Part shown: positions 50,810 to 57,688 of the stretch, piece after piece
Layout: each line of letters starts with the position of its first letter
How positions within the stretch are numbered: position 1 is the first letter of the stretch
NCBI GenBank assembly: GCA_965216565.1
Contig: OZ244170.1
Coordinates: 2,816,001 to 2,880,000, forward strand
Reading direction: 5' to 3'
DNA: 64,000 bases
From: Bythopirellula sp.
GTDB lineage: Bacteria > Planctomycetota > Planctomycetia > Pirellulales > Lacipirellulaceae
Made by a program: the position numbers and the translations under genes
Notes under the pieces: generated by a model
The model's input: the letters and a program-made list of their open reading frames with translations, nothing else
The model's database searches: none
What the model was told of the DNA's origin: nothing

Positions 50810-51355
50810 ATGAAAACGTCTTTGATGACAATTCTCTTGGTTTGCTCCGTTTCGGCCCAATCAGCCAACGCCGATATCGTGTTTAACGTGGAACCTCGCG
50901 CCTTGGTCGGCGGATACGAAATTGCAGGCGGTACCATCAGGACGGATATGGCAGCCACTACCATCACAGCATGGAATGTCGAGGTGACTGGCCCGGTTCC
51001 TTACACGTTTTCTTCCGCTACATCGCCGGGAGCTGCTCTTAAACTTGGATTTGTTCTCTCACCTACGCAAATAACATTCAATTCCGGTGTGCTTGGATTA
51101 GACGCAGGTTTCGTTGCATCTGACAACACAGATCCTGATTGTTCGAGATGCATGCAGCTCCTTGAATAAAATACCGGTGGCTCTCTCCAATACTTGCATT
51201 TTGACCTCGAAGATCCGACTCCTAGCGCTTTCATAGGTACTGGAATCCCGACAGGATCAATCCTGATAGCCGCGGCCGTTCCAGAGCCGTCGTCTTTCGT
51301 ATTGCTTGCCTTCGCCACTTTCTTCGGCATCGGCAAGCGCGGACAACGAATCTAG
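50810..51355 (+). pseudogene. Small PEP-CTERM protein interrupted by one in-frame TAA (51167-51169)
   Basis: Signal MKTSLMTILLVCSVSAQSANA; after the stop the same frame reads NTGGSLQY...AAAVPEPSSFVLLAFATFFGIGKRGQRI to TAG 51353-51355. Confidence 0.8.
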
Positions 51356-51667
51356 CTGACTTTTTTATTTCTGCCCCCTGTACGGAACGATTTGCACACT
51401 GGATTTTTTTTAAACAGCTAGACGCAGCGTCGCAATTGCGTCGCTGGCGGGAACCACCGAACGAAGCTGCGATCCGCGGCGATCTGCTGTCTGCCACTTC
51501 TGAAGAGAGCGAACTGGGTAAAGTGCGTGTGCCTCAGGTCATGTTCGCCAAGCCAACGCGCAACGACCGTTACAACCGAAACGATCGGCACTCGGCGTGA
51601 GCTATACTTTCTACAGCCGACTCCGGTCTTCTCTTCTTACTCACTCTTCGCTTTCGGGGACAATTCT

Positions 51668-52642
51668 TTGGCCACCGCGACTCAGGATCTCATTTCGTTG
51701 CAGATCGATCGTGAGCTCTCGAAGCTCAACAAGCTGCATAGTTCTCCACAAATTGCCCTGCGTGTGATGGAAATCATGCGTCAGGATGACTACGAGATGA
51801 TTGACGTGGCGGAGTGCCTGGAGAACGATCCGGCGCTGACAGCGTCGATTTTGCGGCTGGTGAACTCTTCGTACTACGGCGCGGTGCAACCGATTACGAG
51901 TTTGTCACATGCATTGAATTATCTCGGTCGACGCAGCGTTCGGCTGGCGGTGCTTAGCTTTGGCTTGGTGAAGTCGATGGTCAGTGGTGCCCCGGCGCGA
52001 CTGCACATGGACTATTGGCGACGTTCGCTCACCATGGCGGCGGCAGCACGTCGCTCGGCATTACTCACCAGCGAGCGAGAGGTTGATCCCGATTCCGCCT
52101 TCACCACCGGGCTCCTAGCCGATCTCGGTATTCTGGCGCTTGCTCAACTTCATACCAACAAGTACGCAACAATCGCGGAGGAGCCTGACCACACATCGCG
52201 ACAAGTGCAATTGGAGCGTGAAGCCTTTGGCTTCGACCACATGGCCGTGGGCGGTCGATTGCTGACCCGGTGGGGCCTGCCCGAGGAGACCATCGAAGCG
52301 GTTTCCAATCACCACGTCTACTTGCCAATCAGTTCCGAACTGAATCATCATCTGGTTGTGGCAACGCTCTTGACCGATGTGTTGTGGAACCCGGCGAGCA
52401 CCTACATGCAACCACTTCGTTATATCTTGCAGAGTCGTCTCCAACTGGACGTAGACGATCTGATTAGCCTGGCGCAAGAAACAAAGAAGTCGGTACAAGA
52501 AAGCATGGTCATCTTTGGTGTGAATTTGAAAATGACCATCGATGTCGAAGCCATCGAAGCCGAGGCCCGCGAGCAATTCGCCCAAGCCGCAATGGACGAA
52601 GACACTTTTCTGGGTGGGTTTGATGCGCTGATTCTGGAGTAG
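51668..52642 (+). CDS. HDOD domain signal-transduction protein
   Basis: DPALTASILRLVNSSYYG, HALNYLG, AFTTGLLADLG, ERE.FGFDH..W.LPE; TTG start with GGGGA upstream. Confidence 0.88.
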   Translation: MATATQDLISLQIDRELSKLNKLHSSPQIALRVMEIMRQDDYEMIDVAECLENDPALTASILRLVNSSYYGAVQPITSLSHALNYLGRRSVRLAVLSFGLVKSMVSGAPARLHMDYWRRSLTMAAAARRSALLTSEREVDPDSAFTTGLLADLGILALAQLHTNKYATIAEEPDHTSRQVQLEREAFGFDHMAVGGRLLTRWGLPEETIEAVSNHHVYLPISSELNHHLVVATLLTDVLWNPASTYMQPLRYILQSRLQLDVDDLISLAQETKKSVQESMVIFGVNLKMTIDVEAIEAEAREQFAQAAMDEDTFLGGFDALILE

Positions 52643-52701: not shown

Positions 52702-52909
52702 TACGCCGAAGGCGTTACATTCCACAGCCTAGGGTTCCGAGCGCAGCGAGCTACCCTAGGACTGAAGGCACTAGAACCGTTGATACCCCAAAGGGGTTTC
52801 ACAAAGAACCACGGAGGTTTAATCCTTTCAGGATATAAGATCTCCAAGCCACTGTTACCCAGGGTGCGCTCCGCGACCCTGGGCTGAGGAATGTAACCGC
52901 TTTGCGGTA
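52702..52909. repeat. Composite REP/BIME-like element between convergent genes
   Basis: End hairpins TACGCCGAAGGCGTTA and TAACCGCTTTGCGGTA; arms GTTACATTCCACAGCCTAGGGT and ACCCTGGGCTGAGGAATGTAAC are inverted matches at 20/22; internal CCCCAAAGGGG hairpin. Confidence 0.8.
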
Positions 52910-52939: not shown

Positions 52940-55660
52940 CTATGCGAGTCTCGATCTCCGGCGATAACCGAGCAGGCTCACTGCTGCAAAGCTGGCCAAG
53001 AACGCGGTGCCGGGTTCCGGCACGGAGGTAACCGCGGCTACGAGTGGCACGCCCTGGCCGAATTGTTCCTGCCAGATGAGGAAATCGGTGCCGTCCACTT
53101 GCAGGTCGCCGTTGGCGTCGCCGTGGTAGTGTTCGGCGGAGCCGCTGAGGCCGTAGTTGTTTTCCCAGGCAGCCAGGTCGGCGTTGTCGACGTCGCCGTC
53201 TTCGTCGAAGTCGGCCGCGGCGGGACTGGCTACTTGAATCCAGGCGTTGTAGAACGCGATGCCGAAGCTTGCGCCCATTTCTTCATAGTGCGACAGGGGA
53301 CGATTGTTGCCGAACTCGGCTTCGAAGGTGATATCGACCTCCGCATTGAGAAACGCCTCGGCAAAGTTTGCCGAGGTCCAATTGGAACCCGTGGAATCTG
53401 TATCCAAAATGTGTGGCTGGAGATTCTTCAGTTCCACCCAAAAGTCCGCGAGGTTGTCGCCTTGTTCGTATTCGATGAACCCAAAGTCATCGCCGACGCT
53501 TGCGGGAATGGTCGAGTGGAAATCGATGAATGCGTCGACCACCGAGCCAGGGGTCGCTTGCGTATCAGCAATCATCGCTTCGCCATTGACCTTGATGACC
53601 TGGTCGTCAACCCAGAAGGTGGGGTTCCACTGCCCGTTGGGCTCGACCGTGGGGTTTTCCACGGTGCCCCGGTTGTTGCCGGCAAAGCGACCAGCCGCGT
53701 TCATTGTGGGGTAAGCGAAGATCTCGACGTCTTCTCGAAGGCGTGCCGCCCGGGCGTCGTCGGAAATTAGCCAATTGACCATGGCCTCGAAGGTGTGCGT
53801 GCCGAGCACTTCGCCGGCATGCATGCCGGTGGTGATCACAATCTTGCGTTTGGGCGAGGCCGAGTCGGTCGCCGGGTTTGTAATCCGGTAGGCGTAGACG
53901 TCACGCTTGGGGACGAGTCGGCCGAGGTCGTCGGAGTTAAGGGGTGTCTCGCCGATCACACCGTTGGCGTCGCCCGAGAGGGTCGGCTCGGCCCAGGGCG
54001 AGGCGAGCACCTGGGCGGTATGGGCAGACGAGCGTCCGTACGAGTAGGGCTGGGCATAGGCCACGTAGACTACGTCGTCCGTGAAAGCCGAGTTGTTCGA
54101 AAAGGTGTAGAGATTACCGCTGCGATTGGCGTTATCGAAGAACTCCCAGTTTTCGTTATCGTACGAGTAGACCATCTTGTGATTGGTCAGTGCGCCATTG
54201 CCGCCGGCAAAGGGCTGATCAATAGAAAACTGTGGCTGAGCCCCTTGCAAGCCGGTGCCCTCGAAATACATCCATCGCCAGCGATTGCTGCCGTAGTAAT
54301 TGTCGCGACCAACCAGGTCTATGTTGTTCACATCGCCACTCCAGCTCTGGAGCGAACCATGTTCGAAGTTGCCAGTGAGGTTCAGCACGGCATAGGAAGG
54401 TTGGATGACTCCCGCGGCGAGCGTTAGAGCGAGTACGCTGACCACCACATTGCGAAGCGGAAATACCTGCCTACGGGCCGATCGTCTGGCGAACGTCGCT
54501 GCTAATCCACCCGCTACCAGAAGCAGCAATCCAGCGGGCTCCGGCACCTGGGCGGCGTTACTGGAGGAACCACTGAATGGTCCATCCGTCACGCGAACAT
54601 TATCGAATAGGGCGAATGCCAAATTGGGGTCGGTTCCCTGACTAGAAAAGTAATCGACGATGAACAGACCAATCCCACCCTCCAAGCCAACAGGCCGCTC
54701 CTCGCTGTTGATTCCATCGAAGGGATCGTCGGTGACGCTGTTGTCGATCGTTCCCAGCAAGAAGGAACTTCCCGCGGCATGACTCTTGAGAAAAACTTCG
54801 GCAGTACCAAGATTTCCATTGGTGCCATTGCCTGTGGCGTTGGCATCGACTTCGATCATGACCGTCACCCATTGAAAACCCAAGGCTCCAGCTTGATTGG
54901 TACCAGAACTATTCAGACCACCTGTGGCCGCAGAGATATCGATTGCGGGAAAAAGCGCCGCCAGATCGATGTTGCCGTTGCTATCGGAGTGGTTGTAGCC
55001 GGGCCTGTTTCCTGTGCCGAAGTCACTCTCTGCATACTGCCCGCTATCGAGGTCAAGCCTGGCCCCATCCTTGAGCAGGATGTAGTCGCAAATTCCATCG
55101 TCGGAAGAACTGCAACCCGCGCTGCCATCGCCGCTAAATGTGACACCGGCTCCGTTCTGCGCAGGCGTAAAAGTAAACTGCGCGTCGTCGAGATCAAATC
55201 CAGCCGACACCCCAACATGCTCGGTTGTGCCGGAGGCGTCGTAGTTCATCCAAACATCAACCTCCACCGTGTACTGGTCGTCGAAACTGGCGTCTTCGTA
55301 CACAGCTGCCACCTGGTCGCCCGCCCAACCTCCGGGCAGATTTGCCGCGAGCCGCAGTCCCAGCGTGCTCGCATCGTTGGGATCGCTGTTGGGCGCCTCG
55401 GGAATTCCGTAAGCCGAGTAATCGAAACCAAAGTCGGCCGAACTGATATCGGTGCCGTCTGGTTTGTCGGTTCCCCCGAAGTGGGAGTATTGCCAGCCAG
55501 TGCCGGTGCTGAGATCGTCGGAGAAAAGGACTGTCTGGCCATTGGTTCGTTGCGGACCAAATGACATTAGTAAGATCGTCAGCATACTTAGTGCCAACGA
55601 GACTGATCGACAACGCCTGATCCGAAATGGACTTGTCTGACATAAACTTGATCGAAGCAT
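52940..55660 (-). CDS. 906-aa ORF: PEP-CTERM beta-domain protein fused in frame to a second signal peptide, M14 zinc carboxypeptidase and second PEP-CTERM
   Basis: Internal QVPEPAG-TM-RRSARR then hydrophobic stretch ending SYA; NFEHGSL, HAGE, DFHS and terminal Glu motifs; final VPEPGT-TM-RRRSR. Confidence 0.85.
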   Translation of the reverse strand: MLRSSLCQTSPFRIRRCRSVSLALSMLTILLMSFGPQRTNGQTVLFSDDLSTGTGWQYSHFGGTDKPDGTDISSADFGFDYSAYGIPEAPNSDPNDASTLGLRLAANLPGGWAGDQVAAVYEDASFDDQYTVEVDVWMNYDASGTTEHVGVSAGFDLDDAQFTFTPAQNGAGVTFSGDGSAGCSSSDDGICDYILLKDGARLDLDSGQYAESDFGTGNRPGYNHSDSNGNIDLAALFPAIDISAATGGLNSSGTNQAGALGFQWVTVMIEVDANATGNGTNGNLGTAEVFLKSHAAGSSFLLGTIDNSVTDDPFDGINSEERPVGLEGGIGLFIVDYFSSQGTDPNLAFALFDNVRVTDGPFSGSSSNAAQVPEPAGLLLLVAGGLAATFARRSARRQVFPLRNVVVSVLALTLAAGVIQPSYAVLNLTGNFEHGSLQSWSGDVNNIDLVGRDNYYGSNRWRWMYFEGTGLQGAQPQFSIDQPFAGGNGALTNHKMVYSYDNENWEFFDNANRSGNLYTFSNNSAFTDDVVYVAYAQPYSYGRSSAHTAQVLASPWAEPTLSGDANGVIGETPLNSDDLGRLVPKRDVYAYRITNPATDSASPKRKIVITTGMHAGEVLGTHTFEAMVNWLISDDARAARLREDVEIFAYPTMNAAGRFAGNNRGTVENPTVEPNGQWNPTFWVDDQVIKVNGEAMIADTQATPGSVVDAFIDFHSTIPASVGDDFGFIEYEQGDNLADFWVELKNLQPHILDTDSTGSNWTSANFAEAFLNAEVDITFEAEFGNNRPLSHYEEMGASFGIAFYNAWIQVASPAAADFDEDGDVDNADLAAWENNYGLSGSAEHYHGDANGDLQVDGTDFLIWQEQFGQGVPLVAAVTSVPEPGTAFLASFAAVSLLGYRRRSRLA

Positions 55661-55889
55661 GAGAACCCTCTGGTAGATTCAGCGCACAGAGCGCGACATT
55701 GGCAGGCGATTTTGGTAAGCGCCACTGTTCCGAGTTAGCAGGCAGCTAACTCTAATTTAGTAGCTGAGGGCGATTCCGACAAACAAGCCAGAAAAGAATC
55801 CTCAAGCGAAGGCCCTAGATGGTAGCGTTTTGACCAGATTCACTCACAGGCGAAACGACTATCACTCTTTAGCGCAGTTTCGGCTTCTG

Positions 55890-56858
55890 CTACTTGGCCC
55901 CGGTAAGCTTCACCGCAAACCAACCCGCCAAGGGATCGATCCACCGACGCACGGTGTTGGGTGAGATGAAAGACAGATTGGCAATGATCATGACTAAGCC
56001 AAAGGTGATCATCCCCATAAATAGCGCGATACCGCCGTGGACAAATACGGCCATCCACAGCACCAGCGGTCGGCTGTATCGATTCCAAATCAGGAAACAA
56101 TAGAACAATTCCCAGAAAACCGTGGCATGCGTGGCCAGGGCCACTAGCACAGGCCAGTTGCCAAGCCAGGTCATGTCGAGCGATTGGTACTCGTAGTTGG
56201 CAACCGCCCACCAGACCGCCGTGCCCGCTTGCCAATTCTCGCCGCTGAGTTTTGCCATGCCCGAGAAAAGGTAAATGATACACAAATGTAATTGAATCAA
56301 CCGAATCGCCACGGTCGCCCAGGTGCTGGGTAGCGCGGGCCCCGTATCGCCGCGCCGCAACCGACGAATGCGATCGACCGAGTACCGCGCCCCACACGGG
56401 CCGAGCATCAGGTACATCGCGAGAAGACAGTTGATCTTATCGAGCCCGAAAAACGCGCCTGGGCTGACCCGATGAGCGTAGCTCACTGCAAACAAGAATG
56501 CCAACACCGACATGGGCCGACTGAATAGACCGATCATCAGACAGAAAAAAACAAGCAACGCAATAATGTGAACAGTCCACAGTAGCCAAGTCGATTCGAT
56601 CCAAAAGAACAGACTCCACACCGACCATTCGTTTTGGTGCACTTGCTCGCGGAGATACTCGACCGGCAACCAACCCTGAGGGCCCAGAAAGGCTTCCAAA
56701 TCTAGCGACCACACTAGATGCGTATAAAACAGCATACCCCCGGCTAGCAGACGAATCAGTGACAACGTCGCCGGATCGCTGGGCTTGAACCAGAAACGAT
56801 TCCAAGCGTCCCAAGCATCGACTATGTAGTCTCGCACATCACCGAAGACCGCCTTCAT
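55890..56858 (-). CDS. HTTM-domain membrane protein (SdpB / vitamin-K-dependent carboxylase-like)
   Basis: WNRFWF, TLSLIR, YSVDR, RLIQLHLCIIYLFSGMAKL...WQAG, WELF, FVHGGI; ATGA overlap with the upstream gene. Confidence 0.85.
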   Translation of the reverse strand: MKAVFGDVRDYIVDAWDAWNRFWFKPSDPATLSLIRLLAGGMLFYTHLVWSLDLEAFLGPQGWLPVEYLREQVHQNEWSVWSLFFWIESTWLLWTVHIIALLVFFCLMIGLFSRPMSVLAFLFAVSYAHRVSPGAFFGLDKINCLLAMYLMLGPCGARYSVDRIRRLRRGDTGPALPSTWATVAIRLIQLHLCIIYLFSGMAKLSGENWQAGTAVWWAVANYEYQSLDMTWLGNWPVLVALATHATVFWELFYCFLIWNRYSRPLVLWMAVFVHGGIALFMGMITFGLVMIIANLSFISPNTVRRWIDPLAGWFAVKLTGAK

Positions 56859-57589
56859 TGCTGGCCTCCTGGGATGGCGACGGCAGACTCCGCTTGCGCG
56901 GGCGAACTCTCGGGCCGAGGCCTGCCCTGAAGCGTCGCAATCACTTGATAGGTGGAGGGTGTGTTGAGCGGCGTCTCTTCTTGGACCCGTTGAGGATCGA
57001 GCAAGAAATGGATCAGCCATTCCATGCGGCTGGGTCCCCCGTGAACCGTGGCCAGGTGGTCGGCATAGTTTTGGCCCGACTCGCGTCCCATCATTTCCGT
57101 TTGCTCGGCGAGCATCATATGTCGGTGGTAAAACAGCCGCGGCCACTGTTGCTCGAGGTTGGGGAATTCACCTTCGATTTGCTCGCCCGCGGGAGTCGAC
57201 ACACGGTAGCGAATGATGTGAGTCCCCGCTGGATCGGGAGCAAAGAATTCGTAACCGTGATTCAGATAAGCCAGGTTTAAATAGTGCCGAAAGAACTTGT
57301 GCAGTTCTTCGGTCACGAGGGGTCGCTGCCAAATGGCGCTGTCGTTGGCGGGAATCTGTGGCTGGCCTGGCGGAGGGACGTAACCGGGCGGCAACGCCGG
57401 GCCGACTGATAAATTCCAAGGAGCAGAGACAATGGCGACCAGATGCAAAACAACCAACAGACTCACCAGCAGCCGCCATGCTACGTGCCAAGGCATGCTG
57501 GGATTAACGCGTTTCGGCTTAGCTTTCGGTTTGGCAGCCGGCTGCTTTTCCGGTGGCGAAGTTGGGTTGTCTTGCCTCTTTTTTGACAT
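56855..57589 (-). CDS. SdpA/DUF5819-like partner of the HTTM protein
   Basis: Single TM ending LHL; GYEFFAPDP motif; translationally coupled to the HTTM gene. Confidence 0.65.
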   Translation of the reverse strand: MSKKRQDNPTSPPEKQPAAKPKAKPKRVNPSMPWHVAWRLLVSLLVVLHLVAIVSAPWNLSVGPALPPGYVPPPGQPQIPANDSAIWQRPLVTEELHKFFRHYLNLAYLNHGYEFFAPDPAGTHIIRYRVSTPAGEQIEGEFPNLEQQWPRLFYHRHMMLAEQTEMMGRESGQNYADHLATVHGGPSRMEWLIHFLLDPQRVQEETPLNTPSTYQVIATLQGRPRPESSPAQAESAVAIPGGQQ

Positions 57590-57648
57590 GGGAGTAGCTT
57601 GGCGACGAGGCAAGAATAGGGGTTCAGGGCGAGTTGCGAGCCTATAGC

Positions 57649-57688
57649 AAAAGAAAAACCCCCGCACCGGTCAACACCGATACGGGGG
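57649..57688 (-). terminator. Rho-independent terminator after the TIGR03000-type gene
   Basis: Minus strand CCCCCGTATCGGT-GTTG-ACCGGTGCGGGGG followed by TTTTTCTTTT; G-U pairs form only on the minus strand. Confidence 0.8.

Follow-up and report, generated by a model that had tools for sequence, protein, structure and literature searches.

A 64,000-nucleotide window (the whole stretch of DNA analysed) from Bythopirellula sp., contig OZ244170.1, positions 2,816,001 to 2,880,000, contains a gene on the minus strand (52940-55660) whose product, P0001, consists of two PEP-CTERM proteins in one reading frame, the sorting tag of the first running into the signal of the second. We consider it quite probable that P0001 is one precursor, cut by signal peptidase I (SPase I) and exosortase into two exported proteins, unit A with a predicted lectin fold and unit B, an M14 peptidase, which are predicted to bind each other 1:1 outside the inner membrane. 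With somewhat less assurance, the PEP-CTERM-into-signal hairpin is probably a general self-punctuating linker for secreted polyproteins of 2-10 units in exosortase-bearing bacteria, which packages a lectin-peptidase complex here and which lineages exchange for ATGA coupling, in which the stop and start codons of two adjacent genes overlap. The arrangement is a real, conserved and widespread variant of PEP-CTERM sorting and most likely represents a cleaved secretory polyprotein. The frame, the motifs, their conservation and the enzyme genes were read directly from the sequences.

The open reading frame has 906 codons and runs from 55660 to 52940 with no stop between its halves, which bears out the single frame proposed in the first-pass annotation of this DNA. 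It starts at an ATG with a Shine-Dalgarno (SD)-like site upstream (-6.3 kcal/mol), and this start context is common to genomes G004 and G016. Signal peptide 1 (aa 1-41; 55538-55660) was called by inspection, and mature unit A is predicted to begin at Q42, which is invariant in 28 aligned homologues, with a variable leader before it. Unit A (aa 42-365, 324 aa; 54566-55537) is followed by the internal PEP-CTERM tag (aa 372-391; 54488-54547), which is composed of VPEP (aa 372-375; 54547-54536) and a transmembrane (TM) helix of 16 residues, TM1 (aa 376-391), and is matched by PF07589 (aa 371-397) and TIGR02595. The basic, predicted cytoplasmic loop RRSARRQVFPLRN (aa 392-404; 54449-54487) forms both the tail of tag 1 and the n-region of signal 2. 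The h- and c-regions of the internal signal (aa 405-424; 54389-54448) comprise a hydrophobic stretch, helix 2 (aa 405-419), and then QPSYA↓V, where SPase I is predicted to cut between A424 (54391-54389) and V425 (54388-54386). Unit B (aa 425-810; 53231-54388) contains an N-terminal domain of the cytosolic-carboxypeptidase (CCP) type and an M14 zinc carboxypeptidase, and behind it lie a dockerin-like (EF-hand-type) repeat (aa 816-862; 53075-53215) and the terminal PEP-CTERM tag VPEP-TM-RRRSR (aa 880-906; 52943-53023), with its VPEP at aa 880-883 (53023-53012). All these features are on the minus strand.

Thus the first VPEP, the SYA↓V site, the M14 domain and the second VPEP-TM-RRRSR lie at the positions and in the order first described. 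The order of RRSARR and the second helix also holds, but one does not follow directly on the other, as 7 residues (QVFPLRN) intervene. The Pfam PEP-CTERM model matches two stretches of P0001 (32.7 bits; cut-off 20.7), TIGR02595 is above its cut-off, and Peptidase_M14 (PF00246) scores 42.8 bits (cut-off 21.6). M14_N (PF18027) is below cut-off at 19.7 bits and is precomputed for many homologues. For the dockerin-like repeat, the resemblance noticed earlier stands as a weak one, with Dockerin_1 (PF00404) at 16.7 bits, below the cut-off of 22.9. PEP motif, TM helix and basic cluster are complete at both tags, and the helix hydropathy is 2.86 for the internal tag vs 2.52 for the terminal one. Only the second tag is terminal; the first has 535 residues behind it. 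An Rfam scan of the window gave 0 matches, and a promoter and terminator scan at the window gave nothing above chance. Upstream of the gene, a motif (CAGCTACTAAATT..G..TAG.TG.CT, then CGGAAC; ~55740-55775, minus strand) is common to this genome (G000), G004 and G016 and partly kept in G017, and it is a possible promoter or regulator site.

The genomes of the family and the protein databases were surveyed for the fusion. A fusion without a stop across the junction is present in 10 of 120 family genomes from 5 genera, this genome included; one of these ten copies is truncated where its contig stops. Among 55 matches of the protein search, 30 are fused homologues with 55-78% identity over the junction region, several of which are the same proteins as the genome matches; the gene call for P0032 is probably truncated. 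The fusion is also present in a cultured species (P0025, WP_218932187.1, named Adhaeretor mobilis in its source). In three relatives of the same genus, both units are encoded by adjacent genes with the stop/start overlap ATGA. In a quick unit-B tree, built on 68 rows once 7 duplicate genome rows had been dropped, the fused and the split forms share a single well-supported group and at least 5 state changes are required, indicating that the two forms interconvert. The neighbouring genes differ among 12 orthologue loci, except that G010 and G054 are alike, so the A-B pair moves as a cassette; the gene neighbourhood across these 12 loci gave no functional hint.

The junction keeps its features rather than its sequence. 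Mean identity to P0001 reaches 0.83 for the PEP motif, 0.79 for the N-terminus of mature unit B and 0.68 for unit A; between the two signatures it drops to 0.27 (TM1), 0.21 (loop) and 0.26 (helix 2). Among 31 fused proteins, 30 have xPEP as the internal motif and the remaining one has APES, with PE in all 31, and the conservation of this motif equals that of the terminal PEP. Every loop has 3-8 K/R, and all 31 loops together hold one acidic residue, so the suggestion that the basic cluster of tag 1 doubles as the n-region of signal 2 agrees with the homologues. At the cut site, Ala occupies -1 and A/S/V/T occupies -3 in all 31, and Pro is found at -4 in 25. The distance from PEP to the cut takes 10 different values between 44 and 56 aa, all in frame. 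A basic n-region, a hydrophobic h-region, a small residue at -3 and Ala at -1 are thus found together in 31 of 31 internal signals. For comparison, our signal rule (basic loop, hydrophobic 10-mer, small residues at -3 and -1) fits 39 of 1620 random positions in the single-PEP proteins of this genome.

The predicted cut falls at the boundary of the mature domain. In stand-alone unit-B homologues, the N-terminal signals are of the ordinary kind and end at the residue of the internal cut. The CCP fold begins there too, with the alignments to 4b6z and 3k2k setting in at residue 2 of predicted mature unit B. The proposed signal-peptidase-like site SYA↓V is therefore upheld both by its invariant -1 Ala and small -3 residue and by these mature starts. 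The aligned sequences argue for selection on the two cleavage signatures and show divergence of the helices that separate them.

Unit A is predicted to be a ConA-like jelly-roll beta-sandwich of the lectin/glucanase kind. Its AlphaFold2 model has a predicted local distance difference test (pLDDT) of 61 and a predicted template modelling score (pTM) of 0.75; the best structural match reaches Z 13.5 with a root-mean-square deviation of 3.3 over 178 aligned aa, and many rows of lectins, glycoside hydrolase family 16 and carbohydrate-binding modules (CBM, including CBM66) follow at Z 11-13, with identities to unit A of at most 20%. No Pfam or NCBIfam family and no PDB sequence match was found for unit A, and in the ESM Atlas it matched only hypothetical or domain-of-unknown-function clusters (0.88-0.94). 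Unit-A homologues that are not paired with unit B are ordinary single PEP-CTERM proteins.

Unit B matches the bacterial cytosolic-carboxypeptidase-like M14 structures 4b6z, 3k2k, 4a37 and 3l2n, and the matches cover the CCP-type N-terminal domain. Both have an N-terminal beta domain in front of the M14 domain, zinc ligands and a catalytic Glu; unlike these peptidases, unit B carries an export signal, a sorting tag and a predicted lectin-fold partner. H614, E617, H715 and E780 are invariant in 31 of 31, and we take the first three to be the zinc ligands and E780 to be the catalytic Glu, as assigned by motif. In the Asn-Arg pair, Asn is kept in all 31 and Gly replaces Arg in 25, P0001 included. 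This position presumably corresponds to Arg145 in carboxypeptidase A numbering, in a pair which we take to bind the C-terminal carboxylate of the substrate, and the substrate of unit B may therefore differ.

Units A and B are predicted to bind each other. The A-B co-folding score is 0.89 vs 0.06 for the best control, the contacts agree between runs at 98% or more, and the pLDDT of the partner is at least 90. Of 157 solved pairs 116 attain the mark for a complex, as do 2 of 215 mismatched ones, figures which apply only roughly here because our own paired alignment was used; moreover, the co-fold rows come from fused proteins, and this perfect pairing may raise the score. At the predicted interface lie aa 425-433, where unit B has its new N-terminus, and aa 580-585. 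The interface identity of unit A is 74% in 11 paired and 17% in 17 unpaired homologues (68% and 38% over the whole unit), and that of unit B is 0.72 in fused forms, 0.62 in split forms and 0.41 in outside paralogues (0.74, 0.69 and 0.53 over the whole unit), a comparison which points the same way as the complex prediction and is confounded by the greater overall distance of the unpaired homologues. Such a complex would give a reason for coupling the two units.

The genome, one contig of 5.2 Mb, encodes 253 PEP-CTERM proteins according to a model built on its own terminal tags. In only 3 of the 253 is there an internal tag that more than 200 aa follow, and all 3 run into a signal-like segment. 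There is a single exosortase gene (PF09721, 186 bits; TIGR02602, 134.6 with a cut-off of 105.55), which would serve ~250 substrates; it is located in L054 (G000:C1:4774000-4784000) and adjoined by EpsI-like, Wza-like export and Wzc-like kinase genes. Signal peptidase I genes are present as well. A co-oriented PEP neighbour within 400 nt was found for 75 of 252 PEP-CTERM genes. The second gene with an internal PEP (L052:3572-4894; G000:C1:5050571-5051893, plus strand) is a tandem duplication of one domain with the same tag-to-signal junction, sits in an array of paralogous PEP-CTERM genes and had no match in the 119 other family genomes at E<=1e-15. The third (L053:1785-4841; G000:C1:4897784-4900840, minus strand) also joins two PEP-CTERM proteins within a single frame, and the gene immediately upstream of it is a stand-alone M14 paralogue; its linker is longer, with Met codons before the second signal, and it looks like a recent stop loss.

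The first-pass annotation had proposed a search for internal PEP-CTERM tags followed by signal-like segments, and this architecture recurs in many unrelated proteins. A profile of 11 junctions gave 467 matches at E<=0.001 among 1.84 billion 50%-cluster representatives. Within the best 150 of the 467, an internal tag is present in 146 proteins, which form 82 single-linkage cargo families, and a signal-like segment follows 247 of 261 internal tags vs 78 of 2159 random positions. For example, P0056 (2500 aa) holds ten tags in one chain and P0060 (2036 aa) holds six. The tags of P0060, VPEPGxWALM, differ in style from planctomycete tags and hint at another phylum.

A search with a junction profile is circular with regard to "PEP then signal", so the test was repeated with models of PEP only. 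In 60 loci picked by Pfam score alone, we found 71 terminal tags, 5 internal tags and one cut by the locus end, and all 5 internal tags are signal-like in their continuation. In the complete genome G033, of the same family, 20 stretches (L194-L213) chosen for long or multi-tag frames contain 25 internal tags in 16 proteins of up to five units (L200), and 25 of 25 lead into a signal-like segment (2 overlap the first set). At random positions, the same rule fits 39 of 1620. The layout is also seen in each of twelve additional loci chosen with the junction profile, four of them with three units.

Following established Sec topology rules, we infer the topology of the precursor and all the cuts as follows. 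Signal 1 would export unit A through Sec, and TM1 would then halt transfer, so that VPEP faces the periplasm and the basic loop remains cytoplasmic. As an internal signal, helix 2 would restart export, now of unit B, and SPase I would cut SYA↓V to give unit B its native N-terminus. Exosortase would cleave at each PEP motif, the reaction put forward for ordinary PEP-CTERM substrates, and the leftover hairpin stub of ~50 aa would be degraded. Two proteins, exported or anchored at the surface, would result in equal numbers, and they are predicted to form a lectin-peptidase complex; the ATGA-overlap form in the three relatives would reach the same end via translational coupling. The earlier idea that exosortase and signal peptidase I resolve one precursor is supported, at the level of sequence, by the conserved signatures, the matching mature starts, the enzyme genes and the recurrence of the junction. 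Since there is no stop at the junction, every ribosome starting at unit A must make the fused chain, and the fixed 1:1 stoichiometry suggested at the outset is upheld for synthesis but does not extend beyond it.

Apart from the two reservations on the complex given above, several observations weigh against this reading of P0001 as a cleaved precursor. The fused homologues are related by descent and so do not count as independent, in G017, one of the ten genomes, the frame shifts shortly past the junction, and the signal rule is of our own making. In this genome, a single stop codon separates 5 of 243 terminal tags from a signal-like continuation; such fusions are easy to make, and single unconserved cases may thus be neutral, but the P0001 fusion is conserved. 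The stop and new start at the junction, named in advance as a refuting pattern, do occur in the three relatives with the ATGA overlap, which makes the fusion an alternative to translational coupling and not a requirement; the other half of that pattern, the lack of further such architectures, does not hold. These relatives, with two separate genes at the same place, are also what would favour a sequencing or assembly error that joined two genes. However, contigs from two other studies (X5 record 17, X6 record 24) bridge the junction with 0 gaps, which answers the proposed check of reads across it; X1 and X4, both sequenced from a single sample, match the window without any difference, may be its source and were not counted. 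Nine other genomes and 30 database proteins are fused too, one of the latter named for a cultured species and from a 6.0-Mb contig. With the bridging contigs and with the fusion in other genomes and database proteins, the assembly artefact was rejected, and its chance is negligible. Strain variants come from the same two other studies: at the 33 sites used of 40 listed (7 under overlapping short contigs were excluded), 2 alter an amino acid, and the 7 sites in the junction include one amino-acid change (A411T) and no stop or indel.

P0001 could also be a stop-loss fusion tolerated in an operon, with unit B made mainly from an internal start and read-through as a by-product. One indel turns the ATGA overlap into a fusion, and the tree demands at least 5 changes of state; the third internal-tag gene of this genome (C1:4897784-4900840) has Met before its second signal, and 79 of the 247 signal-like junctions elsewhere (best 150 of the 467 matches) keep a Met in the loop. 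Likewise, an in-frame GTG, TTG or ATG is present somewhere in each of the 10 genomic junctions, but at no common position, and no conserved internal start codon across the junction was found among the fused proteins examined. In P0001, two in-frame GTGs stand at the start of helix 2 (aa 405-406), where some internal initiation is possible, but their SD energies of -3.9 and -2.9 are weak (first-ATG median -5.8, random -2.9), and codons placed beside helix 2, as in G000 and G016, would leave no basic n-region. A Met lies within the loop in only 3 of 31 fused proteins. We think this explanation unlikely. A slightly better chance, though still a small one, goes to a chain that is cut once at the junction or not at all, giving a membrane protein with two periplasmic domains on a helical hairpin, or a freed unit B with unit A still anchored. 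The predicted packing of A against B would also be possible in an uncut chain, and internal signals are sometimes poorly cleaved. Haft et al. 2006 (PMC1569441), in the accessible part of that paper, place PEP-CTERM tags "near the extreme C-termini" and suggest that the few long-tailed ones may be non-functional. Against this, PE and A-x-A are invariant beside helices of 21-27% identity, with which idle motifs should decay too, the split orthologues need both cuts anyway, and the short h-region together with Pro at -4 is more typical of a signal that is cleaved than of an anchor.

Polyproteins resolved by signal peptidase are textbook knowledge for viruses and thought to be rare in bacteria. 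In flavivirus prM-E, a similar anchor-then-signal hairpin is cut by signal peptidase, and the Bradyrhizobium japonicum FbcH cytochrome b-c1 precursor, from one gene, is split at an internal signal into two subunits of a complex. FbcH differs from P0001 as a single respiratory-chain case with no sorting tag, and it is not a repeatable module. The bunyavirus Gn/Gc polyprotein is likewise cut by signal peptidase at an anchor-then-signal hairpin (PMC5113920), and viral glycoprotein polyproteins, as far as the accessible text of that source describes them, share with P0001 the stop-transfer helix, the short cytoplasmic loop, the internal signal, the cut on the exported side and the equimolar subunits. 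They are unrelated to it in sequence, and P0001 would rely on bacterial Sec/SPase I and exosortase, with an anchor that is thought to be removed.

Compared with canonical substrates of the PEP-CTERM/exosortase system (EpsH, Xrt), as outlined in the accessible sources, P0001 is alike in its N-terminal signal, its PEP-TM-basic tag, an exosortase in an exopolysaccharide (EPS) locus and a background of hundreds of substrates per genome; it is unlike them in the mid-chain position of its tag, behind which come another signal and another complete substrate. The exosortase homologue ArtA of Haloferax volcanii cuts a central PGF tag in a Tat substrate fused to a NifU domain (PMC6098224), another mid-chain sorting tag born of gene fusion. 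According to the available part of that report, the archaeal case is strain-specific and has a NifU domain rather than a second exported, tagged protein, whereas the P0001 fusion is kept across genera and would re-export its second unit. For MXAN_5598, which has an internal MYXO-CTERM tag, gene fusion and processing have been proposed (PMC11980579), and its downstream part is extracytoplasmic (outer-membrane beta-barrel/OmpA). The tag and the protease family are different there, and it is a single protein for which the consulted excerpt mentions neither an internal signal peptide nor a polyprotein logic. For bacteria, the accessible portions of two papers (PMC10957091, PMC12188702) lend indirect support to cleavage by exosortase. 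Our literature search, with most subscription journals and all supplements outside its scope, found no description of PEP-CTERM polyproteins.

If cleavage does occur, many of the large planctomycete surface proteins regarded as "multi-domain" would be several proteins each, and their annotations and structure predictions would be wrong. The hairpin might also serve as a handle on the poorly tested exosortase reaction, for a block of the SPase site would leave a 500-aa reporter behind the PEP tag. A long reporter behind the tag is the trick that proved archaeosortase activity. G033, rich in multi-unit chains, is a good organism for proteomics, and the linker could be used to display several proteins at a fixed ratio from one gene.

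Some other elements were noticed around the fused gene. A small PEP-CTERM gene (50810-51357, plus strand) has an in-frame TAA at 51167-51169, which separates its signal-bearing N-half from the VPEP-TM-KR tail and may be a nonsense change or mark a pseudogene. Just past the stop of the fused gene lies an intergenic inverted repeat (52702-52909) with 34-nt arms that are 79% complementary; 13 related copies occur elsewhere in the genome, and it resembles a repetitive extragenic palindromic (REP) element. An HDOD-domain gene (51527-52642, plus strand) is convergent with the fused gene, and its start is probably later than the listed GTG. Upstream of the fused gene, a pair (55890-57667, minus strand) encodes a membrane protein of HTTM/SdpB-like type, for which TIGR04033 scores 48.5 bits and stays under its cut-off, and a 270-aa partner, and in relatives this pair is unlinked to the fused gene.

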